From an uncultured virus (IMG/VR IMGVR_UViG_3300025141_012107) (Duplodnaviria > Heunggongvirae > Uroviricota > Caudoviricetes), in the IMG/VR virus record IMGVR_UViG_3300025141_012107: a stretch of 55,682 nt of DNA. The stretch is one strand, 5' to 3'. The stretch's first letter is position 1, and each line of letters begins with the position of its first letter. The translations under genes and the position numbers were made by a program. Shown in pieces: positions 529 to 32,309 of the stretch. The notes under the pieces were generated by a model that searched no databases, had not been told where the DNA came from, and saw nothing but the letters and a program-made list of their open reading frames with translations.

Positions 529-660
529 AGCCTTGTCTAAGTTTCAGGACGGTTTCTTGGGTAACGTGCAAGATTTGAACTTGCGACCTTCACTTCCTAA
601 TAGTGACGCTCAACCTACTGAGCTAACGTTTGTAACGTCCAAATTGTTGGAGACAAGGCT
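529..660 (-). ncRNA. Y-RNA-like RNA A: tRNA-like domain nested inside the conserved module
   Basis: 10-bp terminal stem AGCCUUGUCU/AGACAAGGCU followed by a U-run; inner stem GGACG/CGUCC; UACAAAC; D arm GCUC-AGUAGGUU-GAGC; anticodon-like arm UCACU-AUUAGGA-AGUGA; T arm GCAAG-UUCAAAU-CUUGC. Confidence 0.75.
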
Positions 661-663
661 AAG

Positions 664-798
664 TGGGAGAGGTAGGAGTCGAACCTACGAGTCTTGCGTT
701 TTCAGGGCAATGCTTTACCAAAAGTTTGTAAGCTACATCCCATTGGAGACGGACAAGCCGTCTAAGTCAGAATAGCTATAGCACTAAGCTACTCTCCC
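664..798 (-). ncRNA. tRNA-Phe(GAA)-like RNA B with about 60-nt structured D-loop insertion
   Basis: Acceptor GGGAGAG/CUCUCCC-A; T arm GUAGG-UUCGACU-CCUAC; anticodon loop CUGAAAA (closing pair is a C-C mismatch); D-loop holds ACUUAGACGG-CUUGU-CCGUCUCCAA...UACAAAC. Confidence 0.8.
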
Positions 799-823
799 AT
801 AATTATTCAGTTTTCAAAAAGCG

Positions 824-894
824 AACGTCCAAGTTCAGGCAGCGGTCAAAGCATTCCGAAGATTGGTTTGTATGCTGTCCTTGTTGGGGACGTC
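824..894 (-). ncRNA. Minimal module-only RNA C (no tRNA domain)
   Basis: GACGUCC-CCAA...CAGC-AUACAAAC...GCUG...AACUU-GGACGUU. Confidence 0.7.
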
Positions 895-908
895 AACTTA
901 ATTTCAAG

Positions 909-1050
909 TGGGGGAGACAGGACTCGAACCTGTAGTCTTTCGCTTATGAGGCAAACGCTTTTCCATTTGTTTGTAAGCTACGACCTATTGGAGACGAACA
1001 AGCCGTCTAAGTTGGAATAGCTGTTTAACGTAGTTTTTAGCTACTCCCCC
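909..1050 (-). ncRNA. tRNA-Met/Ile2(CAU)-like RNA D with about 68-nt structured D-loop insertion
   Basis: Acceptor GGGGGAG/CUCCCCC-A; anticodon arm UUUGC-CUCAUAA-GCGAA; T arm ACAGG-UUCGAGU-CCUGU; insertion nearly identical to that in RNA B. Confidence 0.8.
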
Positions 1051-1055
1051 ATGGA

Positions 1056-1100
1056 GGTCCCGGTCGCCAAGTTTCCGAAGAAGCTTGACGAGTCAGGACC
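1056..1100 (-). other. Long UUCG-capped hairpin within the ncRNA cluster
   Basis: GGUCCUG-ACUCGUCAAG-CUUC-UUCG-GAAA-CUUGGCGA-CCGGGACC. Confidence 0.5.
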
Positions 1101-1142
1101 ATATAGTTTTCAAAGAACTCTTTGAAAAGTCAAGAAGAAACA

Positions 1143-1287
1143 GGCGTCCAAGTTCGAGCAGCGGTATGACATTAGTCACAGATCTTAAATCTGTTGCCTT
1201 ATCCACTTGGCTATACGTTCATGTTGGTGAACATAGTGGGATTCGAACCCACGTTGTTGTTTGTACGCTACGCCAGTAGGGGACGCC
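1143..1287 (-). ncRNA. YrlA-like RNA E: circularly permuted tRNA-Leu(UAA)-like domain inside the conserved module
   Basis: 5'->3' order: GGCGUCC-CCUA, GUAGC, UACAAAC, T arm (GUGGG-UUCGAAU-CCCAC), acceptor UAUGUUCA/UGAACGUA closed by loop CCAACA, D arm, anticodon arm (UAA), GCUGC, AACUU-GGACGCC. Confidence 0.8.
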
Positions 1288-1418
1288 GGTTTCTTCTTCA
1301 CTTGTCAAAGTCGAGCCTTACGACTCTGCCCTATCTTATCAGCTTCCCAGCCACTTTCAAGGGCAATATTCAACTTATCGGCTTTTTCTTGAAATTCCTT
1401 TAATGAATTCCGCAAAGC

Positions 1419-1727
1419 TCAGTTTTTCTTACCTCTCGCAGCTTCAGAGGGCATCTTACCATATCTTTTATGGCTGTCAACCCCTAAATCATCGTCGTCA
1501 AAATCATCTCCGTCATCCCAAACTTCTCCGTTCTCATCTTTGTAACGCTCGTCTTTCATCCAAGTTATCACAACAGGATCTTCGCCTCGATAAAACTTTT
1601 CCTGATGCTGCCCGTCATGATCCTGGGGGAGAGGACATCGGACGGTAGCAACCCCATCGCCAAAGTCGTCTCCGATATAAAGGTGAGCATTACATTCGCC
1701 TTCAACATCTTCTGGTTTTCCAAACAT
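1419..1727 (-). CDS. Hypothetical protein (CxLxxxHxGxH motif, acidic tail)
   Basis: ORF with TAGGAG RBS. Confidence 0.6.
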   Translation of the reverse strand: MFGKPEDVEGECNAHLYIGDDFGDGVATVRCPLPQDHDGQHQEKFYRGEDPVVITWMKDERYKDENGEVWDDGDDFDDDDLGVDSHKRYGKMPSEAARGKKN

Positions 1728-1746
1728 TCGTTTCTCCTAAGTTAAG

Positions 1747-1828
1747 TGCGGAAGGAGGGACTTGAACCCTCAAGCCTTACGGCACTGGATTTTAAATCCA
1801 GCGTGTTTGCCAATTTCACCACTCCCGC
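1747..1828 (-). tRNA. tRNA-Leu(TAA)
   Basis: Full cloverleaf with long variable arm; loop TTTAAAA. Confidence 0.95.
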
Positions 1829-1829
1829 T

Positions 1830-2300
1830 CTATTCATTCCAATCGCTGTCGATCATATCGTAAGGATCGAAACCCATTCTTTTCAACTTGTTCCAAAAGC
1901 GAATGTTATCTCGTTCTCTTTGTTCCTGTTTCTCCTCTTCCTTTCTAGCCCATTCTTCTCGATGCAATTTAATCTCTTCCAGCCTTGCCCTGCGACATTG
2001 GCTACACATGTTCCATAGGTATCTGCATCGCACATGAGGGTCAAGCTTCCGTCTTGCATGTTCGGTAAACTTGCTGCTATCCTTTTTGTTTGCCGTTTTC
2101 TTTACCTTGTACTGAGTCTTGCGATGCTTCTTCCAAGACCTTACGATGGTCGTTGAAACGTCGTCCCATGCGTCAGGCAACATTCGGGGAGTCCTTTTCC
2201 CTCGAATCCTGTAACGCATTTCAGCATCTTCCATGTCCTCCAAGGACCCGTAGTAGCCACGACGTTCATTGGTCGTTGCGGGGGATCTGAAGTAACCCAT
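1830..2300 (-). CDS. Basic Arg/Lys-rich hypothetical protein (YFRSPATTNERR, LPDAWDD, RSWKKHRKTQYK)
   Basis: 156-aa ORF; RBS lies inside an upstream hairpin. Confidence 0.7.
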   Translation of the reverse strand: MGYFRSPATTNERRGYYGSLEDMEDAEMRYRIRGKRTPRMLPDAWDDVSTTIVRSWKKHRKTQYKVKKTANKKDSSKFTEHARRKLDPHVRCRYLWNMCSQCRRARLEEIKLHREEWARKEEEKQEQRERDNIRFWNKLKRMGFDPYDMIDSDWNE

Positions 2301-2304
2301 TTTC

Positions 2305-2363
2305 GTATCTCCTATGCAAAGTTAAACACTTCACATAGGAGATACCGGCTTTGTCCTTTTCAT
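2305..2363 (-). promoter_or_regulatory. Leader peptide MKRTKPVSPM overlapping a hairpin that sequesters the downstream RBS
   Basis: 12-bp inverted repeat GTATCTCCTATG/CATAGGAGATAC (2305-2345); uORF 2363->2331. Confidence 0.55.
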
Positions 2364-2379
2364 ATCTGTATCCTTTCAA

Positions 2380-2465
2380 TACGGGCGAGAGGGGTCGAAC
2401 CTCCATAGGATTTTACTCCCGCCAGATCCTAAGTCTGGTGCGTCTGCCAGTTCCGCCACGCCCGC
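2380..2465 (-). tRNA. tRNA-Leu(TAG)
   Basis: Cloverleaf, loop CTTAGGA, long variable arm. Confidence 0.95.
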
Positions 2466-2474
2466 TCTTTCAAA

Positions 2475-2560
2475 TACGGATAAGAGGAGTCGAACCTCCA
2501 TGGGATTTTACTCCCGCTAGATTCTGAGTCTAGTGCGTCTGCCTATTCCGCCACATCCGC
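2475..2560 (-). tRNA. tRNA-Leu(CAG)
   Basis: Cloverleaf, loop CTCAGAA, long variable arm. Confidence 0.95.
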
Positions 2561-3052
2561 TCTTAAGTCATTTTTGTTCTTGTTCCTTCCTCCATATGTA
2601 GGAGTTTGACTATGACAATTTGGACATAGTAATCTAAGATTCCTTATGCGATTGTCTGTCCTGTCTCCGTTCTCGTGGTCCAAATGCATTGAAAGAGGTT
2701 CTCCATTCCACTCTGTTCCCATTCCGCATTTAGAACATTTTTCTTCCAGTTTGCCACATTCGATTAACCTTTTCTTAAGGTGGCAATTGTTGTATACGAC
2801 TCCCTTTTTTAGGAGATCCCTTAACTCTCTCTTACTAGGTGGGCTCCATGTTTTATCAAGCTTTCTTCTAGATGCCTGCCCTAAAAAATGACTCGTATCT
2901 ATCTTGAAGTTTTCAATCTTGCCCTTCAAGTGAGAATGATTCCCCCCTGAAGGAGCAAGCCCTATCTTCTCCAAAACCTGGCTAATGGAGAAAGAAGTAG
3001 CTACTGCCTCCTCCAGATCTTGGATAGAATACCTTTTCGACGTATGCTTCAT
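2543..3052 (-). CDS. HNH homing endonuclease embedded in the tRNA array
   Basis: CxxC...HLDHENGDRTDNRIRNLRLLCPNCH; stop codon lies inside the tRNA-Leu(CAG) D-loop. Confidence 0.9.
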   Translation of the reverse strand: MKHTSKRYSIQDLEEAVATSFSISQVLEKIGLAPSGGNHSHLKGKIENFKIDTSHFLGQASRRKLDKTWSPPSKRELRDLLKKGVVYNNCHLKKRLIECGKLEEKCSKCGMGTEWNGEPLSMHLDHENGDRTDNRIRNLRLLCPNCHSQTPTYGGRNKNKNDLRADVAE

Positions 3053-3115
3053 ATTGCACCTCCACTATTAGGTACAATATCTTATAGTAAACCTCCTTCA
3101 CAATTTACCAATGAG

Positions 3116-3140
3116 GTTTGCCAGTTTCCGTCACCTGGGC
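3116..3140 (-). pseudogene. 5' fragment of a tRNA-Leu-type gene
   Basis: GCCCAGG-TG-ACGG-AAACTGGCAAAC, then similarity ends. Confidence 0.55.
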
Positions 3141-3146
3141 TTTATT

Positions 3147-3320
3147 TTACCATGTTTGCCTCACGGATGCATCCTTTTTCTTGCCAAATTCTTTTTCTTC
3201 TGTCGAATTCAAAGGGATTCTATGATCCCGCAGGATGTCAAAGAGATTTCGTTTACCTTGCCGGTCTTCGGCTCTCTTACGGTCATAGTCGTCTCCTTCG
3301 TCGTTTGCTTGAGTTTTCAT
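3147..3320 (-). CDS. Small hypothetical protein (start revised to MKTQ)
   Basis: AAGGAG RBS; the longer ORF-track start overlaps a tRNA-like element. Confidence 0.5.
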   Translation of the reverse strand: MKTQANDEGDDYDRKRAEDRQGKRNLFDILRDHRIPLNSTEEKEFGKKKDASVRQTW

Positions 3321-3337
3321 AGCAGTTCTCCTTTTAA

Positions 3338-3421
3338 TGCACCGGGTTGGATTCGAACCAACGTAGACTTTCGCCAACAGTTTGACAGACTGCTGCAACT
3401 CTCCAACTTTGCCGCACGCTC
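3338..3421 (-). pseudogene. Chimeric/pseudo tRNA with GTC (Asp) anticodon on a Tyr-like class II body
   Basis: D, anticodon, variable and T arms intact; acceptor strands GAGCGTG/CCGGTGC mostly unpaired. Confidence 0.6.
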
Positions 3422-3428
3422 TCAGTTA

Positions 3429-3465
3429 TTACAGCCTACCGGGCTCACCACCTGCCCAACTCGCC
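3429..3465 (-). pseudogene. 5' half of tRNA-Tyr(GTA)
   Basis: Acceptor 5' strand, D arm GGGC-AGGTGGTGA-GCCC, then GTAGG-CTGTAA; no 3' half follows. Confidence 0.55.
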
Positions 3466-3479
3466 TATTAAGTTTCAAA

Positions 3480-3562
3480 TACCCCTGACAGGAGTCGAAC
3501 CTGTACGCCTTAATCGGCAGTAGGTTTTGAACCTACCGTGTCTGCCGTTCCACCACAGGGGC
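3480..3562 (-). tRNA. tRNA-Leu(CAA)
   Basis: Cloverleaf, loop TTCAAAA. Confidence 0.95.
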
Positions 3563-3573
3563 TCTGTTTCAAA

Positions 3574-3657
3574 AGGCCGCTGAGGGATTCGAACCCTCGA
3601 TGGCTTAACGCCAGCGGATTTGCAATCCGCTCCCTTTGTCCGCTCGGGCAAACGGCC
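3574..3657 (-). tRNA. tRNA-Cys(GCA) with long variable arm
   Basis: Loop TTGCAAA; U73; variable arm TGGC-GTTAA-GCCA. Confidence 0.85.
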
Positions 3658-5765: not shown

Positions 5766-7586
5766 TTAGGTAATTGTGAGAAGCCTTATGGCTTTGTTAT
5801 CTACTGCGTAGATCCCTTCTTTTGCCAGGAACAGGTGGCTGCTCGAATCCACAAAAGGCTCCGTATCAGGGTAGTCCTTTGTTTCAGCGATCATACTACC
5901 ATGTAATTCGATGCGTTTCAACCCCTCATCTGTCGATGAGAAGAATAATTTTCCAGCCGCCGTTTTTCCCCTGATATTCTCCAGCCAAGCGACATGCTCG
6001 TTGCTATCGTCAATACTAGCTAAAACCTCGCCTTTTTCGCTGATTACGACGCAATGAGAGACGACGTTTGCCCCCTCTTTTGACTTATATAGGAACCAGC
6101 AAATTTCATCTGCAAAATAGCAAGTTGAGTCCAAAAGCTGACCCCGAAACGGCGGCAGCTTGACTCTATCGTTGATTCCCTTGCTTGAAGTCCTGAAAGT
6201 GAAAGCTACCGACATTTCGCCAGCCCGATAGAATCCGAAACCGAACTTTTTCCCTGCCCAGAACAAAGTTTGACCAGACAATACGTCACCAATTCGTTCA
6301 ATTCCCTCAACTCCGGAAACAGTTACTCGCTTCGTTAAGAATCCGTTGTTCAACCAGAACAAGTCTTTGCCGTTTGAATCAAAGACAGGAAGAACACCTC
6401 TATAACTATCAACCGTCAATTGATCAACAACTTGTCCGTCTTCCAAACAAAGAGCTTTTCCGCTCTTCCCAAAGAGAGATTGCTTACCATGAATGCGATA
6501 CCGAACTTGAGGGTCAAGCTTGCTCCGATGAACAACCTTGTTCTCTTCTCTTCTATAAGCTCCATCTTCATGATACAAATACTTCAACTTACCGCTTTGA
6601 AGGGCAGCAAACAAAATTACTCCGCTCGTTTCAAACATACGATCCGCCTTTACCGAACCTTTAATGGTAACGGTCTGAACGATTCTACCAGAAGGAGGCT
6701 TCTGATATGAGTACGGAGACTGAAGAAGGATGGCAGGGAAAGCACCACGTTTGTCCTTGACAAAAACGTCATGAAAATGACTTCTCAACGAATCGGAGAG
6801 TTCATTCATCTTTCTGGCAGGCTTGGGATACTTAACGTCCGGATGAAAAACGCTAATACGATGCAAAGGTCTGTTGCCATGAGCAACCTTATGGGAACCT
6901 TTTTTGGGAATATATACTCCATCATACGGTCGAGTATACAGCAGACATTCAAACAACATAATGTTAAATGCATACCAGTCCGAATCCTCATTGTGAGGCT
7001 TGGTCAATTCAACTCGATCCGAATGACATACCAAAGGATCAACAAAGTTAGCAGTAAACATGGGACATAAATACTTACCATATTGCCAACTGTCTGCATC
7101 GATAAAGTAAGCATCGGTCCCAACAATAAGACAATTCATGTCGTTGTTGTCGCCAATCACAGCGACCTTATGTATACCGCTCAAGGTTTCATGTATATTT
7201 TGGAAGATCGATGCGACCTGTTCGTCGTCCGCACCAGAACTTCTGAAGCTTTTTTCCGAATACCTGAATAAAAGGTCTGCCCCTGGAATCAGCTTCATTA
7301 CATATCCGACAATCTGATTCTTGCTGTTTCTAACAAGACTCTCCGGAGAAACAACCTTGGCAGGAACCTGTTTGGGAAAGGCTGCAAGTTTTGTCTGATG
7401 AGCCTTAAGGCGAGCCGTTGCTGCTGACTGTTCGTGAGGTAAACCGGCATAGTCTTGGTGCTTAGGCCCTTTGAAAATTTTAACAGCCTTGCCGCCATAT
7501 TCGTAGACATCAGCCTCTCCGCCTTTTCCAATGGATTTAGACGGATCGAGTCTGACTTTTTTGTTATCAATATAAACGTCAGCCAT
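5766..7586 (-). CDS. Ser/Thr protein kinase (YegI/TerY-P type) with C-terminal beta-rich domain
   Basis: IGKGGEADVY, AVKIF, IGDNNDMN, FIDADS. Confidence 0.85.
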   Translation of the reverse strand: MADVYIDNKKVRLDPSKSIGKGGEADVYEYGGKAVKIFKGPKHQDYAGLPHEQSAATARLKAHQTKLAAFPKQVPAKVVSPESLVRNSKNQIVGYVMKLIPGADLLFRYSEKSFRSSGADDEQVASIFQNIHETLSGIHKVAVIGDNNDMNCLIVGTDAYFIDADSWQYGKYLCPMFTANFVDPLVCHSDRVELTKPHNEDSDWYAFNIMLFECLLYTRPYDGVYIPKKGSHKVAHGNRPLHRISVFHPDVKYPKPARKMNELSDSLRSHFHDVFVKDKRGAFPAILLQSPYSYQKPPSGRIVQTVTIKGSVKADRMFETSGVILFAALQSGKLKYLYHEDGAYRREENKVVHRSKLDPQVRYRIHGKQSLFGKSGKALCLEDGQVVDQLTVDSYRGVLPVFDSNGKDLFWLNNGFLTKRVTVSGVEGIERIGDVLSGQTLFWAGKKFGFGFYRAGEMSVAFTFRTSSKGINDRVKLPPFRGQLLDSTCYFADEICWFLYKSKEGANVVSHCVVISEKGEVLASIDDSNEHVAWLENIRGKTAAGKLFFSSTDEGLKRIELHGSMIAETKDYPDTEPFVDSSSHLFLAKEGIYAVDNKAIRLLTIT

Positions 7587-8364
7587 CGGTCTCCTCTTCC
7601 GGTTTGCGACGAATCACAACCAACCCTACGTCATCATGCATAAAACCAGGTTCGCCGTTGTAGTCTCTTGCGATCAGATGGAAACGACGACGAAGCATAT
7701 CTTGGTTGTTGAAATATTTGTCTTCTGTCCAAATTTGAGACAAACTTCCGAACTGTTTTTGTTGACCGGGGACATTTTTGTCAGGCTCAAAGTAACTCAA
7801 GCCGTCTGTACTAATGACCAAAGACTGTAAGGCATCCGTGGGAATACAGGCTCTTTGAACGAACTGGTATTTCCCGTCCTCTTCGGGAAAGATGTGAGAA
7901 TAAACCATATAAGGAGGCGCATTGCCGGGAAAAGGCCCGATTTCGGACATTTCTCCATTGACGCCAAAAAAACCATCTCCTATGGAAAATACATAAGAGT
8001 TTCCTGGCATAACAACTGCGACAATAGTTGTACACAGAAAATTCCCATCCAACAGATGAGTCTCATCTCCTCTCATGTTTTTGACGATTGCTTTTACTGC
8101 TTTCAGCGCATTAATACGGACATCGTCCATTGCACAATCAACATTAAAATTGTAAGACAAATATAATCCGACATCTTGGGCGACTATCCTAGAAATGATT
8201 TGAGCCCCAATTTCTGAATGATCGCTACTCCCGCATCCGTCGCAGACGACAGCGACAATCGTTGAACCGTCGTTGGTTACGCATACGGCGTCTTGATTAT
8301 TGCGGCCAGCATTGAGGTGATCTTTACCACAAACGGACGCCGAAGCGACTTGGAATTCATCCAT
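7579..8364 (-). CDS. PP2C-like protein phosphatase (YegK type)
   Basis: GKDH...NNQDA, VCDGCGS, IGDG, STDG, HDD; start revised to MDEFQ. Confidence 0.85.
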   Translation of the reverse strand: MDEFQVASASVCGKDHLNAGRNNQDAVCVTNDGSTIVAVVCDGCGSSDHSEIGAQIISRIVAQDVGLYLSYNFNVDCAMDDVRINALKAVKAIVKNMRGDETHLLDGNFLCTTIVAVVMPGNSYVFSIGDGFFGVNGEMSEIGPFPGNAPPYMVYSHIFPEEDGKYQFVQRACIPTDALQSLVISTDGLSYFEPDKNVPGQQKQFGSLSQIWTEDKYFNNQDMLRRRFHLIARDYNGEPGFMHDDVGLVVIRRKPEEETDG

Positions 8365-8420
8365 CGTTATCCTATCTATAAAGCCCTCGCATTGTACAAT
8401 ATTTGGATTGAAATTCAAGG

Positions 8421-8448
8421 GAAAAGAAAAGGCGGCATTTCTGCCGCC
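8421..8448 (-). terminator. Intrinsic terminator after the RNase P RNA
   Basis: GGCGGCA-GAAA-TGCCGCC followed by TTTTCTTTTC. Confidence 0.7.
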
Positions 8449-8454
8449 GATAAA

Positions 8455-8656
8455 GACGTTTGGCTCCGTAAGCAGGATTCTGTTCTATGTCGTCATTTCT
8501 CTATTGGCCCTCTACCCGCCATCATAGTCATGCTCACCAACTCCGGCTGCTTGAGGTTGCTATCTCTGTGGTCCAAGCGGCGTTAGCCTCCCACATTAGA
8601 GCACTATAGTCCTGACTTTCCTCTGCGAATTGCAGCGACGACTCGAACCAAACGTC
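8455..8656 (-). ncRNA. rnpB: Miniature RNase P RNA (catalytic domain, reduced S-domain)
   Basis: P1 GACGUUUGGUUC/GAGCCAAACGUC; P2 GUCGUC/GACGAC; CR-I GAGGAAAGUC; P4 AAG(U)CAGGA/UCCUGCUU; CR-IV AGAGAAAUGAC; CR-V AACAGAAUCCUGCUUA; L15-like GGGUA. Confidence 0.9.
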
Positions 8657-8978
8657 AAATACCCTTTAGAGCTTGCACAATTTTACCAACTTCTTTGCCC
8701 CATTCTGTCCGCTTATTGCCTATGGCCAATATAGTCTTGGAAAACTCGGAAGCTGGAGCGTCTTCTATCTTACCCAATTCTATTCTTCGAAGCAAGATCC
8801 TCATATCCTTGGACAATTCTTCGCCTCTCCTTTTCATTCCATCGAAATCATGGGACACAAAAATTACCAAAGAAGCATCGTCCGAAGAATCGTACAAGGA
8901 TTCAATCTCGTTCAAAATCCTATGTATTTCTAATTGGCTTTCTCTGATAGTTGATTCCACCACATTGATGGGTATCAT
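8655..8978 (-). CDS. Hypothetical protein
   Basis: ORF coupled to neighbours. Confidence 0.6.
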   Translation of the reverse strand: MIPINVVESTIRESQLEIHRILNEIESLYDSSDDASLVIFVSHDFDGMKRRGEELSKDMRILLRRIELGKIEDAPASEFSKTILAIGNKRTEWGKEVGKIVQALKGI

Positions 8979-22839: not shown

Positions 22840-23022
22840 TTAATCTTGACTTCCTGTTCCTTCTGCTTTTAGCTTATGTAGGTCGTCGCTGATTTCGTCA
22901 ATCTTTTTCTTAAGTTTGGCGAACTTCCATACATACTTGGTTTCACACATATGCCATCCGATTACACCAGACAGCAAACAGGCCAAAACCACAGTCAGCC
23001 AAATAGCTGGAGACACAATCAT
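22840..23022 (-). CDS. Small membrane protein
   Basis: Hydrophobic N-terminus. Confidence 0.5.
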   Translation of the reverse strand: MIVSPAIWLTVVLACLLSGVIGWHMCETKYVWKFAKLKKKIDEISDDLHKLKAEGTGSQD

Positions 23023-23294
23023 CCTCCTCCGGAAATAGCTAGAGCGATATAGACTTCATCTTCATCGGCTAACTTGGTATCCACGCCATTGAGAAAACGC
23101 ATGTCCTCGCTATTGATGTAAATGTTGACGAATTTGTTCATCTGTCCATCTTTGACGATCCTATTGTGAAGGTCTGGGAAGTTTAATTCTATATTCCTAA
23201 GCATAGTGCTTACAGTATTAGCCCTGACCTCTATAAAGTCGTTGTCATTTGCGAACGGTTTCAGTGCTGTCGGTATTTCTACTTTCATAACCAC
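23019..23294 (-). CDS. MoaD/ThiS/CysO-like ubiquitin-like sulfur carrier
   Basis: VEIPTALK, FVNIYIN.EDMRFL.G.DT.L, C-terminal SGGG. Confidence 0.9.
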   Translation of the reverse strand: MVMKVEIPTALKPFANDNDFIEVRANTVSTMLRNIELNFPDLHNRIVKDGQMNKFVNIYINSEDMRFLNGVDTKLADEDEVYIALAISGGG

Positions 23295-25018: not shown

Positions 25019-25092
25019 TGCCCCTGAGAGGATTCGAACCTCTGACCTCCGCCATGTCGAGGCGGCGCTGCTTGCCACTGAGCTACAGGAGC
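25019..25092 (-). tRNA. tRNA-Val(GAC), atypical (C33)
   Basis: Cloverleaf; loop TCGACAT. Confidence 0.75.
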
Positions 25093-25103
25093 TTGGTTGG
25101 GTG

Positions 25104-25991
25104 CTATGCCCCAAATCCGTTTTTTTCTTTGATCTTGTTTATCTCTTTCTTAACAACGTTTACGTCACCAGTGCTTTCCGACTGTCTCTTGACAGAGTCT
25201 TTGACGCTCTTCTGAGCGGCAGCTACGACTGTATCAAGATCAGCTTCGGCAACGCCTGCCTTGCGAAGATTCTCTCGTAAGCTTTCCTTCGCTCTTTCCA
25301 AACCTCCAACAACACTTTTGGCAGTCTTTTCAAGCTTCTCTTTTGCCTTGGCGTCATACAAGAACCAAACGCCAACGCCTACCAAGCCTACCAAGCCTAG
25401 CAACCATACCCATGGATAGGCCGCTGAAACGTAGGCGATACCCAAAAGAGCTACGCCGGAGCCGGCAATGGTTCCGCCCAACCCGATTCGCTTGGTAACG
25501 CCCATAAAGATGATCCCGCCAACAACCAGCAAGGCACCAAGAATGTAAAGGATGCCTTCTCCGCTTTTCCCGTTGAAAAGTTCGACAGAAAAATCAGTAG
25601 AACCTCCAGATGCCTTGGATACTCCGGTAAGACCAACTTCAGGTGCTGATGTGTTAACTTCGCCCAACATCTCGTCGTTAGCTTGGGCAGAAATGTCGGA
25701 ACCCTTGCCTTTGGAAACATCGTTCTGGGTAAAGCTTTCGGCTCCCTCGATGTCTTCTATAACGATCTCTACACCATAGCCTTCGGGAGCTTCGTAGGTT
25801 TCTCCTCCGAATTCGATTGTGCGAGATTTAGGAGCAGGAACAACAGCGGTCTTCCCTGGTTCCGTTATGATCTGGACAGGATTGCTGCCAATTTTGTCAA
25901 GCGTAACAAAACCGAATGTGGTTACTACTAACAGCGTAATGGCTACGATTGTCGCAGTTGACACGTTTAGTTGTCTATCTGATAAAGACAT
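25104..25991 (-). CDS. Multi-pass membrane protein
   Basis: One N-terminal and three internal hydrophobic helices. Confidence 0.7.
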   Translation of the reverse strand: MSLSDRQLNVSTATIVAITLLVVTTFGFVTLDKIGSNPVQIITEPGKTAVVPAPKSRTIEFGGETYEAPEGYGVEIVIEDIEGAESFTQNDVSKGKGSDISAQANDEMLGEVNTSAPEVGLTGVSKASGGSTDFSVELFNGKSGEGILYILGALLVVGGIIFMGVTKRIGLGGTIAGSGVALLGIAYVSAAYPWVWLLGLVGLVGVGVWFLYDAKAKEKLEKTAKSVVGGLERAKESLRENLRKAGVAEADLDTVVAAAQKSVKDSVKRQSESTGDVNVVKKEINKIKEKNGFGA

Positions 25992-26260
25992 TATTTCTTC
26001 CCTCCTTTTTCACTATTCTCTCCCGGTCTACGGGCTTTGATATTTGAATCAGGAGTCGCTGGAACCGTCCCGAACTGAGGGCTACCAGGTGGAAGGATGC
26101 GTAGAGTCTTTCGTCTAACATTTTGTTCTCTTATGTCTTCGGTATTTCTAGTAGCCTCTGCACTTGCTCCAGTTATTTTCGTACTTGCGAAATACTGGCA
26201 TCCCGCTAACGACAGAATGAACAGAAATGCGAGGGCAGCGACCAACTTTCTGTAGGCCAT
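25991..26260 (-). CDS. Putative lipoprotein
   Basis: Signal peptide with LAGC lipobox. Confidence 0.65.
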   Translation of the reverse strand: MAYRKLVAALAFLFILSLAGCQYFASTKITGASAEATRNTEDIREQNVRRKTLRILPPGSPQFGTVPATPDSNIKARRPGENSEKGGKK

Positions 26261-26408
26261 AACCTTCTCCTTTCGACGAAAGGGCTTCTATATTCCCTTC
26301 TGCCCATATATCCGATTCCCTCTATTTATGAGAAAGAATGACCAGAAGTATTGTGTACTTCTAAGCTTGGACAATTACCTTATTATCGGCTTTTTTACCT
26401 ACATCCAA

Positions 26409-26615
26409 TCAGGTTGGGGGAATAGCAAAAACATGTCTTGTTAGATGTGGGTCAACGAACTCGGCATATTCCCGTCCGTTCCCATATTCAAATACGTTGC
26501 TATACCAACACGCAAACCATTGATCATTTGTTGTCTGAACTAGGAACTTCTGATTCTTACCCTTTTCCGCAGTCAATGCCTCTACCTCATTGATGGAAAC
26601 CGGCTGAAGTACCAT
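26409..26615 (-). CDS. Hypothetical protein
   Basis: ORF with GGGAG RBS. Confidence 0.5.
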   Translation of the reverse strand: MVLQPVSINEVEALTAEKGKNQKFLVQTTNDQWFACWYSNVFEYGNGREYAEFVDPHLTRHVFAIPPT

Positions 26616-26665
26616 GTGTCTTTCTCCCTAAATGACCCACGCTGGTGGTTCTTTGACTTTCCTTT

Positions 26666-26980
26666 TTACATAAGACATGGGGTCTTTGCGACTCTTTTTT
26701 TATCCTGCCACATCTTGGCAAAGTCGCCAGGTCGCAGACCGACCTGTTTCACAATGTATTCAGCAATATTCTTAGCATTGCTGCCCCAAAAAGACTCTGC
26801 TTTAATAGAGATGCTATGATTAGTAATAGGGTGGGTCCATTTTTCATGAGACCCACTAGTACCTTGGTACTGATAACCTATACTTTGTAAAAATCTGGTT
26901 ATCTCCCGATAAGACACGTTGGGCATTTTGGCGGCAGCCTCAACGAGCAGACGATAACCGGTGGAGTAGATAAGAAGCAT
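26666..26980 (-). CDS. HicA-like mRNA interferase domain protein
   Basis: YREITRFLQSIGY...SGSHEKWTHP. Confidence 0.7.
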   Translation of the reverse strand: MLLIYSTGYRLLVEAAAKMPNVSYREITRFLQSIGYQYQGTSGSHEKWTHPITNHSISIKAESFWGSNAKNIAEYIVKQVGLRPGDFAKMWQDKKRVAKTPCLM

Positions 26981-27041
26981 TCTTATAGTTCAGCTAAAAT
27001 GCTCGCCCTCCTCTGTGGAAAATGGATCTCAATCAGTAAAA

Positions 27042-27115
27042 TCGGGGTGACAGGATTCGAACCTGCGACAACTCGGCCCCAAACCGAGAACTCTGCCAAA
27101 CTGAGCTACACCCCG
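27042..27115 (-). tRNA. tRNA-Pro(TGG)
   Basis: Cloverleaf; loop TTTGGGG. Confidence 0.9.
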
Positions 27116-27121
27116 TAGCAA

Positions 27122-27194
27122 TGCGGGTATGGAGAGTCGAACTCGCAACCCCTACACTGGCAATGTAGTATACTACCCTTAATACGATACCCGC
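27122..27194 (-). tRNA. tRNA-Gly(GCC), atypical
   Basis: Loop TTGCCAG; two T-stem mismatches; A73. Confidence 0.7.
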
Positions 27195-27197
27195 TAT

Positions 27198-27515
27198 TTA
27201 TCCTACCAAATCTTTCAAAGCATTGGCAACGTCATTTTTAGTAGACAAGCCAACAATTTTCTTTTGAATAGCCCCGCCCTTAACTAACATCAGCGTAGGA
27301 ATAGACCTGACCTCGTTCTCCTTCGTGATCTCACTTGCGGTGTCAGCGTCAACTTTGATAAACTTAACCTTGTCGCCAAATTCTTCTTCAAGTTCATCAA
27401 GCGTAGGCTTGAATATCTTGCATGGTTGACACCATTCGGCTGAGAAGTAAACCAATACCGGCTCACTGCTTTCGAGAACCTCAGTTGCGTAACTGTCATT
27501 CGTTGCTTGAATCAT
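27198..27515 (-). CDS. trxA: Thioredoxin
   Basis: WCQPC active site, SIPTL. Confidence 0.95.
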   Translation of the reverse strand: MIQATNDSYATEVLESSEPVLVYFSAEWCQPCKIFKPTLDELEEEFGDKVKFIKVDADTASEITKENEVRSIPTLMLVKGGAIQKKIVGLSTKNDVANALKDLVG

Positions 27516-27906
27516 CTTTCTTTCCTTCGTTTTGCCTCAACTGTTCTAAAAGTCTTTCGGCAAATAGTAGATTAACCTTCGCAGCCTTGTCCGACTGTTG
27601 GCCTATGAGTGTATCAAACAAAGGCCGAGCGACCTTGTAAAGCGAATGTTTTAGACGATCAGATATCTTGATTTCGCCCAAGATCCCATACTGATTGGCA
27701 GGAGCGGGAGTGCAATGGTCTCTACCGGCATTGACATAAACAAACATACCCGTATCACGATGTCTCAACCAAGATGGGTCATGGTCGTCGTAAGCATACC
27801 ATCTTTCAGGATGGTTTAGCATACTGTCTATAATCTCGTTAACGAGATCTACATGAACAGGTAGTTCGGGGTTGGCTGAAGTTTTCCAAGAAAACCAACC
27901 CATCAA
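27496..27906 (-). CDS. Hypothetical protein
   Basis: Coupled ORF. Confidence 0.6.
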   Translation of the reverse strand: MMGWFSWKTSANPELPVHVDLVNEIIDSMLNHPERWYAYDDHDPSWLRHRDTGMFVYVNAGRDHCTPAPANQYGILGEIKISDRLKHSLYKVARPLFDTLIGQQSDKAAKVNLLFAERLLEQLRQNEGKKDDSSNE

Positions 27907-28454
27907 TCGTCTCCCCCGCCTCCACCGTCGTCGCCGCCAATCCGACTCATTCTGATGCGGCTGATCTTGAGTCTAGCCAGCTTGTTGCTGTTGCTGCTGG
28001 CGGTTCGAGTGGGGGGTTCGTAGGCAGATTCTGGAGCGGGTTCGGAAACAGGAGGAGGCACGTAAGTAGGCTCGACCGGTTGAACATCGATAGGAGTCGG
28101 AATCGAAACGACGGGGTCGGGGGCTTCAGTCACCGACTGTTCAACAACGTTGCCGATTTCTGCTTGACCGCTGGCGGTATCGATGAGACCAGCCTCTTCT
28201 GCTGCCGCAACTTCATCGGCATAGGCCAAGGCTTCAGCTTCGGTCGGATAATCCCATCCGTACTCGTTGAAATCGTCGAGCGTCATTGCCAGAATAAATG
28301 CTGTCTCCAGCAGTTCTTCGATGATGTCGCCCACTGCATCGTAAAAGACGACATAGTTTCTGCCGCCACGACTGACGGTTGCGAAATGGGTTGCCCTTCG
28401 TTTTGGAGGGGCTGAAACGGTTCCGCCTTTTTTCTTCTTACTAAATGGCCACAT
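27903..28454 (-). CDS. Hypothetical protein with Pro-rich low-complexity tail
   Basis: Coupled ORF. Confidence 0.6.
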   Translation of the reverse strand: MWPFSKKKKGGTVSAPPKRRATHFATVSRGGRNYVVFYDAVGDIIEELLETAFILAMTLDDFNEYGWDYPTEAEALAYADEVAAAEEAGLIDTASGQAEIGNVVEQSVTEAPDPVVSIPTPIDVQPVEPTYVPPPVSEPAPESAYEPPTRTASSNSNKLARLKISRIRMSRIGGDDGGGGGDD

Positions 28455-28466
28455 AATTCCGTCCTT

Positions 28467-28883
28467 TTAATCAAACGGGGTTTCTGTTTCGTCGCCCTCT
28501 ACGTCAGGCAACTGTCTTCCAAACATAGCGAATATTGCATTTTCCGTAATACTCAACGTATCGTCTAGCTGTTGATGAACCTCCGAAGTCTGAGGCATTT
28601 GAGTTGCCAAAATCTTTGAGAGGATGTCAGGTTGTTGAGACAATGTATCATGCTGTTCCAGCATAGACGAAAACATCTTTTCGACTTCTAGACGCCAATT
28701 GTCTAGCCATTCCCGGAATAGTTGTTCTCCGCCGTCCATTTCTTGGTCCAGATGACTCCTAACCACCTGTAAGGTAGCGTATTGGACGAACGAATTTACC
28801 AAGGCTGACATATTGTACAGTTGTTGAGATTCCATTGCAACCCTAATCTGTTCCTGGCCAAAAATCAGTCCATACTTTAACAT
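28467..28883 (-). CDS. Hypothetical protein
   Basis: ORF with GGAGG RBS. Confidence 0.6.
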   Translation of the reverse strand: MLKYGLIFGQEQIRVAMESQQLYNMSALVNSFVQYATLQVVRSHLDQEMDGGEQLFREWLDNWRLEVEKMFSSMLEQHDTLSQQPDILSKILATQMPQTSEVHQQLDDTLSITENAIFAMFGRQLPDVEGDETETPFD

Positions 28884-29112
28884 AACCCTCCGGCACTCCT
28901 CCGATGTCTCTTCGGATATGAATCTCAGCCGCTTTAGCAGTTTTGTCTCCCCATTTCAAACGGCAATGACGAACACCTCCAGTGTTGTGGCGAAACCTGC
29001 GATGAGTAACCCCAACATACTTATATAACTCGTCAAGCCACAGATGAACTTGAGGAAAGGCTGAGCCCAACTCTCTTTCGCAGTCCTCGCAATGTTCTCT
29101 GAAAAACGCCAT
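28843..29112 (-). CDS. His-rich hypothetical phage protein
   Basis: H..VHLWLD...HRRFRH...HIRRD. Confidence 0.55.
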   Translation of the reverse strand: MAFFREHCEDCERELGSAFPQVHLWLDELYKYVGVTHRRFRHNTGGVRHCRLKWGDKTAKAAEIHIRRDIGGVPEGYVKVWTDFWPGTD

Positions 29113-29504
29113 CAGTCGTCAACCATGTTGGTGGCAAATATTATTGCCATCTTCCGCCCCTCGTTTGTTGGTGCGAAGCGAGCAACTGGACTTACTCCGC
29201 TTGTTTCGGCAAAATGAGGATCAAGCTTGCCATTGCGCAAGCATCTTTCGAATATATCTTTGCGATAAACAAGGATCTTATGACCTTCATAGTTTGTACA
29301 TCCGTAATACTTTACTCTAGCAACAACCAAATCTCCTATGCGATCTATGCTCATAACAGAAAAACTACTAGGATTAGGATTCGGCGGAGAAGGTGTTGGA
29401 TTGGGATGATAAACCTCTGCAAGCTTCCAATCGCAACGAGGACAGAAGCGATCTTTGTCATATGAGCTGTAAGAGCTTGAACCAAAAGGTCCTGGCATTC
29501 CCAT
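29112..29504 (-). CDS. Hypothetical phage protein (PNP, GCTNYEG.KILV, LDPHF, ARF.PT motifs)
   Basis: ORF with conserved-looking motifs. Confidence 0.65.
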   Translation of the reverse strand: MGMPGPFGSSSYSSYDKDRFCPRCDWKLAEVYHPNPTPSPPNPNPSSFSVMSIDRIGDLVVARVKYYGCTNYEGHKILVYRKDIFERCLRNGKLDPHFAETSGVSPVARFAPTNEGRKMAIIFATNMVDD

Positions 29505-29521
29505 TTGTTTATCCCTTCAAA

Positions 29522-29594
29522 TCAGACTGACAGGATTTGAACCTGCGACTTCTGCGCCCGAACGCAGTGCTCTACCAAACTGAGCTACAGTCTG
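29522..29594 (-). tRNA. tRNA-Pro(CGG) with 6-nt anticodon loop
   Basis: CTGCG-TTCGGG-CGCAG; rest of the cloverleaf is canonical. Confidence 0.75.
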
Positions 29595-29766
29595 TTTATT
29601 CTAACATTCATTGCTCCACTATAACATGCACATGTTATTGAGCAATAATAGGGTTTACTAATGTCGTGGTCGTCTGGAACTTCAATTTCTTGACGACCAC
29701 GCTTTTCTTCAGGTTTTGACCAGTGAGGTCTTCTTTCGCCGCATTTTTCATATGAACATTTGACTT

Positions 29767-30054
29767 TCATGCCAATTTTCCGTAAACGGCGTTCGCTGAG
29801 ACCCATCCGTTAATACCGCCCTTGTTATTCCCTATCTGGAAACGATTGCCGTTCACTGCTTTTACGAAATGCAGATACTGGTTACCGCCAACTTTGCAAA
29901 GAACAATGTCTCCTTTTCTTATCTCGTCTCTGACGGGTTCGACCGTACACAGTTGCCCAGACTTAACTACGGGGTGCATAGAGTTCCCTCTTGGAAAAAA
30001 CTGAACCGTTTGTCCATCTTTCAATGCTTCGATATGTTTAGTTGCCCATCCCAT
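29767..30054 (-). CDS. S24/S26 peptidase-like small protein
   Basis: GNSMHP, GDIVL, YLHFV, IGNN. Confidence 0.65.
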   Translation of the reverse strand: MGWATKHIEALKDGQTVQFFPRGNSMHPVVKSGQLCTVEPVRDEIRKGDIVLCKVGGNQYLHFVKAVNGNRFQIGNNKGGINGWVSANAVYGKLA

Positions 30055-30056
30055 AA

Positions 30057-30127
30057 CTGCCTCGGTTGGATTCGAACCAACGCCAACGGCTTCAAAGACC
30101 GCTCACCTACCATTAGTGTACGAGGCA
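30057..30127 (-). tRNA. tRNA-Gln(TTG)
   Basis: Cloverleaf; loop CTTTGAA; U1-A72, G73. Confidence 0.85.
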
Positions 30128-30133
30128 TTCAAG

Positions 30134-30206
30134 CTGGCCTGGTAGGACTCGAACCTACAACCGACTGGATCAGAACCAGTTGCACCGCCAATTGTGCTAC
30201 AGGCCA
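30134..30206 (-). tRNA. tRNA-Gln(CTG)
   Basis: Cloverleaf; loop TTCTGAT. Confidence 0.9.
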
Positions 30207-30225
30207 ATTCTTTATTATCGACAAG

Positions 30226-30300
30226 TGGGCGAGAGAGGATTCGAACCTCCGACTTCTACTTTGTAAGAGTAGCACTCTGGCCAGACTGAGTTACACGCCC
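30226..30300 (-). tRNA. tRNA-Val(TAC)
   Basis: Cloverleaf; loop CTTACAA. Confidence 0.9.
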
Positions 30301-30305
30301 TATAT

Positions 30306-30374
30306 GGGAAGCGTCCTACCACTAGACGACGGAGGCCGAAGCCTCCGGCAGGATTCGAACCTGCGTTTCTTCCC
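30306..30374 (-). ncRNA. Circularly permuted tRNA mimic without an anticodon loop
   Basis: GGGAAG-AAAC-T arm (GCAGG-UUCGAAU-CCUGC)-CGGAGGC-UUCG-GCCUCCG-UC-D arm (GUCU-AGUGGUA-GGAC)-G-CUUCCC. Confidence 0.85.
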
Positions 30375-30378
30375 TAAG

Positions 30379-30451
30379 TACCCCATAGCGGATTCGAACC
30401 GCTGTGACGAGATCGAGAATCTCGCATCCTAAGCCACTAGATGAATGGGGC
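30379..30451 (-). tRNA. tRNA-Glu(CTC)
   Basis: Cloverleaf; loop TTCTCGA. Confidence 0.9.
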
Positions 30452-30457
30452 AATGAA

Positions 30458-30530
30458 CACCGCCAGGGGGAATCGAACCCGCCTCCTCTGGGATGAAGGC
30501 CCAGCGGTCTACCAGTAACGCTATGACGGC
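30458..30530 (-). pseudogene. Degenerate tRNA-Glu(TTC)
   Basis: Acceptor and anticodon stems intact; C33; D-stem and T-stem mismatches. Confidence 0.6.
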
Positions 30531-30877
30531 AATTTGTATCTCCAATTATTGGGTCTCGTTTGACCCCTCACTTTATCCCAAACTTTATCAGGCATGAACT
30601 CCAACTTGGGATCTTCTTGAAGCTCATACAAAAACAGTAAACCCTTGTTGATTTCCTCTATCCAATTGGTCAAATGCCAGTTGAACGAAGTCTTACCATA
30701 CCACACTTTGTTGAACGTGTCAACATCGTTACAGGAAACCATCTCTCCCCTACTGTCCAGAAGAAAGAAGCACTCCAATGGGCTGTATCCGTCTTCTGAC
30801 TGTATGATTCCTTTTTCATGTCCCATGGGTCCCAGCTTCTCGTAACATTCCATGTAGAAGTCGTAGAACTCTTTCAT
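30521..30877 (-). CDS. Hypothetical protein
   Basis: 118-aa ORF. Confidence 0.55.
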   Translation of the reverse strand: MKEFYDFYMECYEKLGPMGHEKGIIQSEDGYSPLECFFLLDSRGEMVSCNDVDTFNKVWYGKTSFNWHLTNWIEEINKGLLFLYELQEDPKLEFMPDKVWDKVRGQTRPNNWRYKLPS

Positions 30878-30968
30878 GGTACGAGAAACTTTTACATAGC
30901 TTGGCGCTCTTTCATTTGACTATCCTCCTAGTTTGCAGGGTTCCTATTGGTATTGTCGAAATTAAGGT

Positions 30969-31520
30969 ATGATCTACCTCACCCGTCATGGCAATCGACA
31001 CGATCAACATGACAAAAAGTGGCGAAGCAACTGCGAATTCTCATGGGACACTCCCATATGTCCAACTCATTTCCCAGCCATGCTCAATCAAGCCGAAACT
31101 TTGAAAGATAAGATTGAAGTCGTCTATTCAAGCCCCTTCGTTAGAGCCATGCAAACTGCCTGGGTTTATGCCGATGTTTGCAGCGTCCCGATCTGCATCG
31201 AAGGCTCTCTGTCTGAATGTCTCAAAGAAAAGTGGTTTCCAAATCCTGAGTCATTCCAGTTGCTAACCACCTCTGAACTTGCAAGAAACTACCCGCAAGT
31301 CGATCAAACCTATCAGTCACGCTTTGATCCCAAACCTCCGGAAGGAAGACGGCATTGTCGAAGAAGGGTCAGTCGTTTTCTTGACTGGTTGATCCCTCAA
31401 AATTCCAACTGCCTTCTCGTCGGTCATGGGTTCAGCATCAAGGACTGCAAAGTAAGATTCGGGATGGACGGAAAGATTCCTCCGAAAGGTATTTTGCTTA
31501 CGCCTCCGAACCAAGATTAA
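30969..31520 (+). CDS. Histidine phosphatase (phosphoglycerate mutase family)
   Basis: LTRHG, YSSPFVRAMQTA, LVGHG. Confidence 0.9.
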   Translation: MIYLTRHGNRHDQHDKKWRSNCEFSWDTPICPTHFPAMLNQAETLKDKIEVVYSSPFVRAMQTAWVYADVCSVPICIEGSLSECLKEKWFPNPESFQLLTTSELARNYPQVDQTYQSRFDPKPPEGRRHCRRRVSRFLDWLIPQNSNCLLVGHGFSIKDCKVRFGMDGKIPPKGILLTPPNQD

Positions 31521-31593: not shown

Positions 31594-31603
31594 ATGCGTA
31601 GAA

Positions 31604-31677: not shown

Positions 31678-31686
31678 TCAAAAAAG

Positions 31687-32308: not shown

Positions 32309-32309
32309 T

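Follow-up and report, generated by a model that had tools for sequence, protein, structure and literature searches.

A 202-nucleotide (nt) RNA gene at positions 8455..8656 on the minus strand of a stretch of uncultured virus DNA (IMG/VR record IMGVR_UViG_3300025141_012107; 55,682 nt, hereafter the window, meaning the whole stretch that was analysed) is fairly likely to be a genuine, miniaturised bacterial type A RNase P RNA gene, under selection in a large uncultured marine phage, whose product would join the host protein RnpA in a hybrid enzyme maturing phage pre-tRNAs. RNase P RNA is the ribozyme that trims newly made tRNAs. An earlier note on this DNA, made from the letters alone, had proposed a miniature RNase P RNA between these same ends; the observation is real, and the first reading is supported apart from its helix P6. 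Function as an active RNase P is probable, judging from the sequences of the RNA and its relatives.

When positions 8300-8800 were searched with cmscan under permissive filters, the model of bacterial class A RNase P RNA (RF00010) matched the minus strand at 8453-8654 over its entire length (model positions 1-367 of 367, non-truncated) with a score of 72.1 bits and an E-value of 4.9e-22. RF00010 was also the best-scoring family within the RNase P clan. The Infernal search against the Rfam RNase P models, named beforehand as the check, was thus positive, although under the Rfam gathering score. Because the score lies under the curated cut-off, the gene is missed by a standard scan: at curated thresholds, an Rfam scan of the whole window gave 24 tRNA matches as its sole output and no RNase P. 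The ends of the RNA are set by helix P1, whose 12 base pairs (bp) bound exactly 8455-8656, and our own covariance model (R1) matched the window once only, at 8453-8658.

In the RF00010 alignment, P1-P2, conserved region (CR) I, the J5/15 sequence GCAA, P15-P17 with GGGUA, CR-IV and CR-V are intact, and P3 is shortened. Three deletions set the RNA apart from the model: about 140 positions of P7-P14 (15+15+110) are reduced to about 40 nt (13+11+16), the P18 block of 23 model positions is reduced to 1 nt, and part of J2/4 is missing. Folding of the single sequence was not distinctive, since the minimum free energy structure was not more stable than those of shuffled sequences (z = -1.27) and gave P1-P3, the remnant of the specificity domain (S-domain) and P15-P17 while missing P4, P5 and P6. 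Therefore, the case was built on homology and covariation.

Model R1 was made from the window RNA and a close variant (L089) with our nested structure, and it gave 78 matches in 79 sources. Pairs were counted on an alignment (A5) of 26 relatives that share the S-domain remnant, or stub, and are without P18; P4 and P6 were added as pseudoknots outside the aligning model. The parts of the RNA are listed below with the percentage of paired cells in these relatives, a figure that is inflated for the nested helices, to which the alignment was fitted, while P4 and P6 are free of such bias.

8455..8656, minus strand: whole mini RNase P RNA, 202 nt, ends set by P1; RNA position 1 is window position 8656.
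8645..8656 (5' strand, GACGUUUGGUUC) with 8455..8466 (3' strand, GAGCCAAACGUC), minus strand: P1, RNA 1-12/191-202, 12 bp; all 12 pairs show compensatory changes in relatives.
8637..8642 (5' strand, GUCGUC) with 8494-8489, minus strand: P2, RNA 15-20/163-168; 6 of 6 pairs compensatory, 98.1% of cells paired.
8623..8635, minus strand: P3, a miniature hairpin, RNA 22-25/31-34, 4 bp (CUGC/GCAG) with loop AAUUC; 97.9% paired.
8611..8623, minus strand: CR-I, GAGGAAAGUCAGG, RNA 34-46, placed by the RF00010 alignment; includes the P4 5' strand.
8618-8611 with 8476-8470, minus strand: P4, RNA 39-41 and 43-46/181-187, with the bulged U42 at 8615; 100% paired.
8606..8609 (CUAU) with 8563-8560 (AUAG), minus strand: P5, RNA 48-51/94-97; 100% paired, 3 of 4 pairs compensatory.
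8599..8604 (GUGCUC, in J5/7) with 8535-8530 (GAGCAU, in the P17 loop), minus strand: P6 pseudoknot, RNA 53-58/122-127; 89.2% paired, 6 of 6 pairs compensatory.
8564..8598, minus strand: S-domain stub of 35 nt in place of P8-P14, made of a P7-like helix, the internal loop GA/GCUUGGA and the hairpin GGC-UAAC-GCC (8588-8579).
8595-8591 with 8571-8567, minus strand: P7-like helix UGUGG/CCACA, RNA 62-66/86-90; 97.7% paired, 4 of 5 pairs compensatory.
8557..8560, minus strand: J5/15, GCAA, placed by the RF00010 alignment.
8509..8556, minus strand: P15-P16-P17 arm, placed by the RF00010 alignment and by covariation in relatives.
RNA 101-104/145-148, minus strand: P15, CCUC/GAGG; 90.8% paired, all pairs compensatory.
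RNA 110-113/136-139, minus strand: P16, GCCG/UGGC; 91.3% paired, all pairs compensatory.
RNA 118-121/129-132, minus strand: P17, UGGU/ACUA; 66.7% paired.
8516-8514, minus strand: L15, GGU, RNA 141-143, the P15 internal loop for the tRNA 3' end.
8494..8503, minus strand: CR-IV (J18/2), UAGAGAAAUG, RNA 154-163; P18, expected before it, is absent.
8469..8483, minus strand: CR-V, ACAGAAUCCUGCUUA, RNA 174-188; includes the P4 3' strand (8476-8470).

All the catalytic-domain (C-domain) features named in the earlier note, namely P1-P4 with the bulged U, CR-I, CR-IV, CR-V and P15 with GGU, were thus located, and covariation bears them out. The GGU of the P15 loop pairs with tRNA 3' ends in the bacterial enzymes, and J5/15 is the region of the conserved A that contacts substrate residue -1 in Escherichia coli. 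The proposed cut of the S-domain to about 40 nt, with UGUGG/CCACA around GGC-UAAC-GCC (8595-8567), was found as described and covaries in relatives. Of the RF00010 S-domain (P7-P14 with CR-II, CR-III and the T-stem-loop binding site), only the P7-like helix and one hairpin remain. Since the RNA falls short of both the gathering score and this domain, we regard it as a new structural variant and not as an ordinary member of type A. Descent from bacterial type A is clear from the best match within the clan and by the bacterial-style GGU in L15.

The helices are supported by the relatives. Standard pairs filled 93.5% of 1,434 pair cells compared with 68.1% in shuffles, and none of 500 shuffles reached the observed value on any of five measures; when the 3' partners were slid by 1-3 columns, 33-48% of the cells were paired. 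Compensatory changes on both sides occurred in 48 of the 59 pairs. P1 was paired in 93.2% and the stub hairpin in 98.6% of the cells, and P4 holds one covarying pair (A-U in 18, G-C in 6 and C-G in 2 relatives). RNAalifold run on a structure-blind MAFFT alignment of 14 members returned P1, P3, P4, P5, the P7-like helix, the stub hairpin, P15 and P17; compensatory changes were seen in 26 of the 43 pairs, and all four P5 pairs were kept in 13 of the 14 rows. As the register of P7, of the stub hairpin and of P15-P17 was wrong in the MAFFT alignment, the variable helices were counted on the model-based alignment instead.

The one structural element that did not stand was the P6 pairing first suggested, UAUAGU/ACUAUG. 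It overlaps P5 and P17, was paired in 36.4% of the cells in the 26 relatives, and was equalled by 87 of 500 shuffles. The supported P6 is GUGCUC/GAGCAU, a pseudoknot between J5/7 and the P17 loop, which is a hallmark of type A.

Selection on the RNA is also apparent over short distances. The window RNA and the variant L089 differ at 2 of 204 RNA positions, both of them changes from a Watson-Crick to a wobble pair (in P1 and P17) that keep the pairing, while the adjoining open reading frame (ORF) differs at 21 of 266 positions (Fisher p = 3.6e-4). Contigs from two further runs carry the same two changes and one more at an unpaired position; the natural variant at 8463, in the P1 3' strand, changes G-C to G.U. 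Invariant across the 26 relatives are the stub residues G66, A68, G69, C78, A85 and C86, the middle G of the L15 GGU and the first pair of P5; in CR-IV, the residues A155, G156, A161 and U162 are each shared by 25 of the 26. Neither the middle G of L15, which lay in no search pattern, nor these CR-IV residues were forced by the way in which the sequences were collected.

The stub keeps its asymmetric internal loop in all 26 sequences (5' side GA, 3' side GnUUGnA), while its hairpin loop is free to vary. This conservation of the loop argues that the stub is a functional module and not a mere cap. A T-loop-like fold of the stub would be speculation on our part.

The window RNA has many relatives. 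An exact 20-mer of it occurs in one IMG/VR contig (G001, 122,591 bp), and all 301 bases compared there agree with the window. When viral contigs were pattern-searched for CR-I and CR-V at shortened spacings, 30 loci were obtained: 9 with a gap of 110-140, G001 among them, 14 with 141-171 and 7 with 79-109. RF00010 matched 19 of 20 and 9 of 9 submitted viral loci, always over the full model, with 28-118 bits and RNAs of 157-249 nt; the locus L013 gave no RF00010 match at E <= 1e-3. The smallest members, of about 157-166 nt (L028-L034, on viral contigs), have P5 capped by a loop of 5-8 nt and no S-domain, and each is followed by a tRNA gene after 0-8 nt. A metagenome pattern scan tuned to the sub-architecture of the window RNA gave 68 loci with 62 distinct cores, including a core identical to that of the window on a 292,595-bp contig (L055) and the close variant L089. 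The same pattern, run on one genome per prokaryotic species, gave 14 loci, all 14 of which match our covariance model; tRNA genes, up to 11 of them, lie in the 1-kb flanks of 8 of the 14. Over the whole family the RNA is about 157-250 nt long.

The family is closely tied to tRNA genes. With flanks of 300-400 nt, 21 of the 26 viral loci and 21 of the 50 metagenomic loci had a tRNA gene on the same strand within 100 nt, and the distance was 20 nt or less in 18 and 16 of these, respectively. The nearest tRNA gene was co-oriented in all 45 loci that had any. An isolate genome, in a record titled Achromobacter anxifer LMG 26857, holds a canonical rnpB of 405 nt (202 bits) and in addition a mini copy of 224 nt (82.7 bits). 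This mini copy (C5:14076-14299) lies inside an array of 11 tRNA genes on a 486,889-bp contig with phage-type genes, which is possibly a resident jumbo phage. Because the isolate holds both forms, the mini form is best seen as an extra, mobile accessory copy beside the host enzyme. The phage-type proteins encoded in the first 40 kb of the Achromobacter contig are a topoisomerase II large subunit, an RNA ligase, a dUTPase and an ATPase resembling polynucleotide kinase.

Two further loci were recorded on the side. A 1.5-kb metagenome contig (L079) carries two mini RNAs on the same strand (1-141 and 195-399) about 50 nt apart, one of which is cut by the contig end. In a record titled Pseudomonas sp. 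NPDC096917, a 249-nt RF00010 match of 187 bits (L118:1501-1749), with no tRNAs nearby, resembles a host-type rnpB from which about 100 nt over P10-P14 have been cleanly deleted and in which P5 and P7 have damaged 3' strands. No second rnpB was found among the 84 of 102 candidates scored in that genome, and the RNA may represent a real reduced gene, a pseudogene or an error of assembly.

A distant-mode blastn search of 50,697 GenBank phage records with four family members (the window RNA, a 162-nt marine RNA, a 204-nt RNA and the stretch around the Achromobacter copy) gave no match, a weak negative because the short conserved blocks cannot reach significance. Extended to the family, our reading is that phages of many lineages carry a class of RNase P RNA derived from type A without the S-domain, of about 157-250 nt, which together with host RnpA would make up a virus-specified tRNA-processing enzyme; the stub would be a new minimal module that braces the core in place of the L8/L9/L14/L18 contacts, or a vestigial hold on the tRNA elbow. 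We consider this wider proposal as apt to prove wrong as right.

The viral origin of the window contig is well supported by its sequence, namely by the identical IMG/VR stretch, by a protein match to a phage and by gene content. A neighbouring protein of 502 amino acids (aa) and a protein of the uncultured phage LR745208.1 (485,034 bp) share 42.5% identity, over 94% of the length of the former. The window proteins are mostly orphans; those that can be recognised are an NAD-ligase, a thioredoxin, HNH endonucleases, a HicA-like protein, a lamin-tail domain (matching a phage tail family) and methyltransferases. The 749-aa ORF, with the Pfam domains of an NAD-dependent ligase, matches DNA ligase genes in 1,169 phage records at less than 60% identity (about 30% in the best listed), and a tblastn search of the GenBank phage records with the 596-aa ORF gave nothing. 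No cellular housekeeping genes were found among the 66 window ORFs scanned. The runs that carry the window DNA are labelled as marine or seawater metagenomes and come from several studies; no RNA run was among those listed.

It could nevertheless be argued that a host rnpB was captured and the RNA is its decaying, non-functional relic, or that a bacterium with a small genome was mis-binned as viral and the RNA is its true rnpB. IMG/VR labels G001 as a 'provirus' of 26% completeness, and neither the terminase (Terminase_6N) nor the HK97 capsid (Phage_capsid) family was found in this 26% fragment; the Pseudomonas isolate described above has a host-like rnpB with a fresh internal deletion, and reduced P RNAs occur in Candidate Phyla Radiation (CPR) bacteria, according to the available text of PMC8172020. 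However, the compensatory changes and the slower evolution relative to the flanking ORF exclude decay. A cellular origin is at odds with the lack of housekeeping genes among the 66 ORFs scanned, the 23 tRNA genes on one strand, the HNH endonucleases and the protein shared with the 485-kb phage. Moreover, relatives of the RNA sit in a complete record of 183,648 bp with terminal repeats and in records that hold terminase genes, and the mini copy of the Achromobacter isolate is additional to its canonical rnpB. We therefore regard this explanation as very improbable and retain that of a phage gene under selection.

The phage does not appear to supply the usual protein subunit. A Pfam search for the RnpA domain (Ribonuclease_P) found none in 6 + 60 window ORFs, and PF00825 was found in none of five viral records with mini RNAs, one of them 100% complete and bearing terminal repeats; the control search was positive in 10 of 14 reference genomes. 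Because no phage RnpA gene was found, host RnpA is the likeliest partner. In the mechanism that we propose, the RNA would be transcribed together with the upstream ORF, stop at its own terminator and need processing of its 5' end. It would fold as a complete C-domain, with P1-P5, the P4 core with the bulged U, J5/15, the P15 GGU, P6, CR-IV and CR-V. During infection it would join host RnpA to give a hybrid RNase P, which would cut the 5' leaders off phage pre-tRNAs (23 or more tRNA genes lie in the window). The module that reads the tRNA elbow (P9-P14) and P18 would be dispensable here and would have been lost, while the P7-like stub and P6 would have been kept to brace the core.

This proposal agrees with work on the E. 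coli ribozyme as far as it is described in the available text of PMC5839562: the C-domain without the S-domain cleaves whether or not the C5 protein is present, about 100-fold more slowly; its activity needs a P6-like pairing and not P18, whose role is to dock on P8 of the S-domain; and the protein-free activity needs about 800 mM Mg2+. The phage RNA has dropped what was dispensable in these experiments (the S-domain, P18 and a long P3) and has kept P6, which mattered.

The same facts can be read in two other ways as far as the partner is concerned. The mini RNA might be a decoy that binds host RnpA as a poor catalyst and titrates or retargets the protein, depressing host tRNA maturation. Bacterial P RNA contacts its protein through regions of the C-domain, and this domain is kept; the partner, with no RnpA gene found in the phage, must come from the host pool; and the loss of the S-domain lowers activity in vitro about 100-fold (PMC5839562). 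Against this, the residues for substrate binding and chemistry are conserved (L15 GGU, the A residues of J5/15, the bulged U and the P4 geometry), most relatives lie within phage tRNA arrays on the same strand, and a block of RNase P would harm a phage that invests in 20-30 tRNA genes, which makes a decoy distinctly unlikely.

Alternatively, the RNA could be an active ribozyme that works without host RnpA, helped by a phage protein that escaped recognition or acting essentially alone on the tRNA precursors transcribed with it. Most window ORFs are of no known family, which leaves room for a novel cofactor; the RNA lies 0-20 nt from tRNA genes in 18 of 26 viral loci, so that it could act within its own transcript; and C-domains do cleave protein-free in vitro, but at the very high Mg2+ given above (about 800 mM; PMC5839562). 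The ORFs that neighbour the RNA are acidic (pI 4.4-5.4), unlike RNA-binding cofactors, and among the 120-odd loci a conserved partner gene was not found, the flanking ORFs being seen only in the same phage and the one close variant. Action in cis is not possible in the window, where the gene is solitary. We think this explanation unlikely and continue with the hybrid of phage RNA and host RnpA.

A further alternative concerns the substrate. Loss of the elbow-reading domain may have broadened or changed the specificity, so that the RNA would act on targets other than tRNAs, in the processing of phage mRNA or the destruction of host RNA. The T-loop-binding module is indeed absent, the window gene lies among protein genes and not among tRNAs, and the window holds odd tRNA-like matches. 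However, the family as a whole is tied to ordinary tRNA arrays, the elements that read the acceptor end (GGU and J5/15) are kept, and no candidate for another substrate was identified; we give retargeting a slim chance and keep phage pre-tRNAs as the presumed substrate. The suggestion in the earlier note that the loss of T-loop recognition serves to process 'aberrant tRNA-like RNAs' of this phage is likewise speculation.

As to these tRNA-like sequences, weak Rfam tRNA matches of 33-35 bits lie at 664-741 and 916-981, neither of which is called by ARAGORN, and for the ARAGORN tRNA at 29522-29594 the anticodon is undetermined. The trailers of most window tRNAs start with UU, often UUGAA or UUUGAA, which suggests that they may share a 3' processing signal.

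Several observations weigh against the proposed identity and role and have to be set beside the evidence above. The 72.1 bits of the mini RNA are below the Rfam gathering score of 100 bits. Because exact CR-I and CR-V patterns were used to gather the family, the invariance of these regions is by construction, and the same holds for GCAA in the metagenome set. P17 pairs poorly in the relatives (66.7%), probably because it adopts a different register in other members. The window RNA, unlike most of its relatives, is not beside tRNA genes, the nearest being at 3480-3657 (4.8 kb downstream) and 25019-25092 (16 kb upstream). In addition, 22-23 of the 23 window tRNA genes (559-3657 and 25019-34395, minus strand) have no encoded 3' CCA, and for this reason the GGU would find no partner on the primary transcripts unless CCA were added first. 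That host RnpA is the partner is a pure inference. Finally, neither RF00010 nor R1 detected a mini RNA in LR745208.1, and the lack of a copy there indicates that the gene is patchy among related huge phages and not essential to them.

The RNA lies between protein genes on the strand that carries nearly all ORFs and all tRNA genes (85 of 104 crude ORF calls and 23 of 23 ARAGORN tRNA genes). The features that flank it are as follows.

8655..8978, minus strand: upstream ORF, 107 aa, pI 5.4, of no family; its stop codon overlaps the first RNA bases.
8421..8448, minus strand: intrinsic terminator, with the stem GGCGGCA-GAAA-UGCCGCC (8448-8431) followed by UUUUCUUUUC; it begins 6 nt past the end of P1.
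7579..8418, minus strand: downstream gene for a PP2C-type phosphatase, 279 aa, with a promoter-like site at 8418-8391; context, outside the RNA.

The 5' strand of P1 begins within the TGA stop codon of the upstream ORF (8657-8655). No sigma-70-like promoter was found on the minus strand between the start region of this ORF and the RNA. Since no such promoter precedes the RNA, co-transcription with the 107-aa ORF, followed by processing of the 5' end, is probable. The terminator named in the earlier note is present as a stem with a T run; no terminator or upstream arrangement shared with the nearest RNA relatives was evident. Four traits make the window copy distinct within the family: it stands on its own among protein genes and has its own terminator, its genome is that of a huge marine phage, its P3 measures 4 bp, and P18 is missing.

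Some other genes of the window may be mentioned for completeness. The PP2C phosphatase gene overlaps an ORF of 606 aa of no known family downstream of the RNA (5766-8418, minus strand). A HicA-toxin-like protein is encoded at 26666-26980 and a ubiquitin-like protein of the ThiS family at 23019-23294, both on the minus strand.

RNase P RNA is regarded as a universal ribozyme of cells. A search of the full-text literature, with subscription journals and very recent work outside its reach, gave no report of a phage-encoded RNase P RNA, and reviews of 2016 and 2024, in their available parts, name bacterial types A, B and C, archaeal and organellar forms and no phage-encoded one. If our reading is correct, tRNA 5' maturation would join tRNAs and translation factors among the functions that viruses encode, with the window gene as the free-standing form of the class, bearing its own terminator in a huge marine phage. 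The family would then be a natural experiment on the purpose of the S-domain and P18, parallel to the archaeal type T RNAs and the engineered C-domains, and a source of compact ribozymes (as short as about 157 nt among the relatives) that structural studies and RNase P-based tools could use. Genes of this kind score under the Rfam cut-off and hence fall into a blind spot of annotation. A further, testable question raised by the finding is in what way a viral RNA shares the single RnpA of its host or competes for it.

Compared with the type A RNase P RNA of bacteria (rnpB, the M1 RNA of E. coli; RF00010), the phage RNA has the same CR-I, CR-IV, CR-V, P1-P5, bulged U, P6 between J5/7 and L17, and P15 GGU. 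It differs in its length of 202 nt, whereas 340-420 nt is typical (PMC4919922, available text), in the 35-nt stub that takes the place of P8-P14 with CR-II, CR-III and the T-loop site, in the lack of P18, and in a P3 of 4 bp. It is, moreover, encoded by a phage without an rnpA gene and scores under the Rfam cut-off.

Reduced P RNAs are known from cells. Those of CPR bacteria and of Mycoplasma fermentans are likewise without P12, P13, P14 and P18 and fall under the Rfam thresholds; however, in the available description (PMC8172020) they are the sole cellular copy, keep much of the S-domain and in some cases have no GGU, whereas the phage RNAs lose all of P8-P14. The RNase P-like RNA of camelpox virus, the only such viral case that we found in print, is also virus-encoded; it belongs to a eukaryotic virus, shows some similarity in secondary structure and no pre-tRNA processing in vitro, and is not a clear homolog (PMC3001073, available text).

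A cellular counterpart in form is the archaeal type T RNA (also type P) of Pyrobaculum and other Thermoproteaceae, which is similar in length (about 200 nt), keeps the C-domain and has nearly lost the S-domain (PMC4919922, PMC5839562), with P6 modelled as present and P18 absent as in the phage RNA (PMC5839562, in the parts available). Type T RNAs are, however, archaeal and cellular, and each is the sole RNase P RNA, working with archaeal proteins, while the phage RNA is an accessory on a mobile genome. The best match of the phage RNA is not to the archaeal models, and its context is a bacterial-type phage genome; the likeness is convergent, one of form and not of descent.

The engineered C-domain ribozymes of E. 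coli (Eco CP RPR, with delP18 and mini-P3 variants) consist of nearly the same parts: as described in the available text of PMC5839562, they also have no S-domain, can dispense with P18, tolerate a shortened P3 and need a P6-like pairing. If our reading is correct, nature has reached the same minimal ribozyme as laboratory design. The engineered forms are laboratory constructs without a stub, whereas the phage RNAs are a natural, evolving family whose stub carries invariant loop residues.

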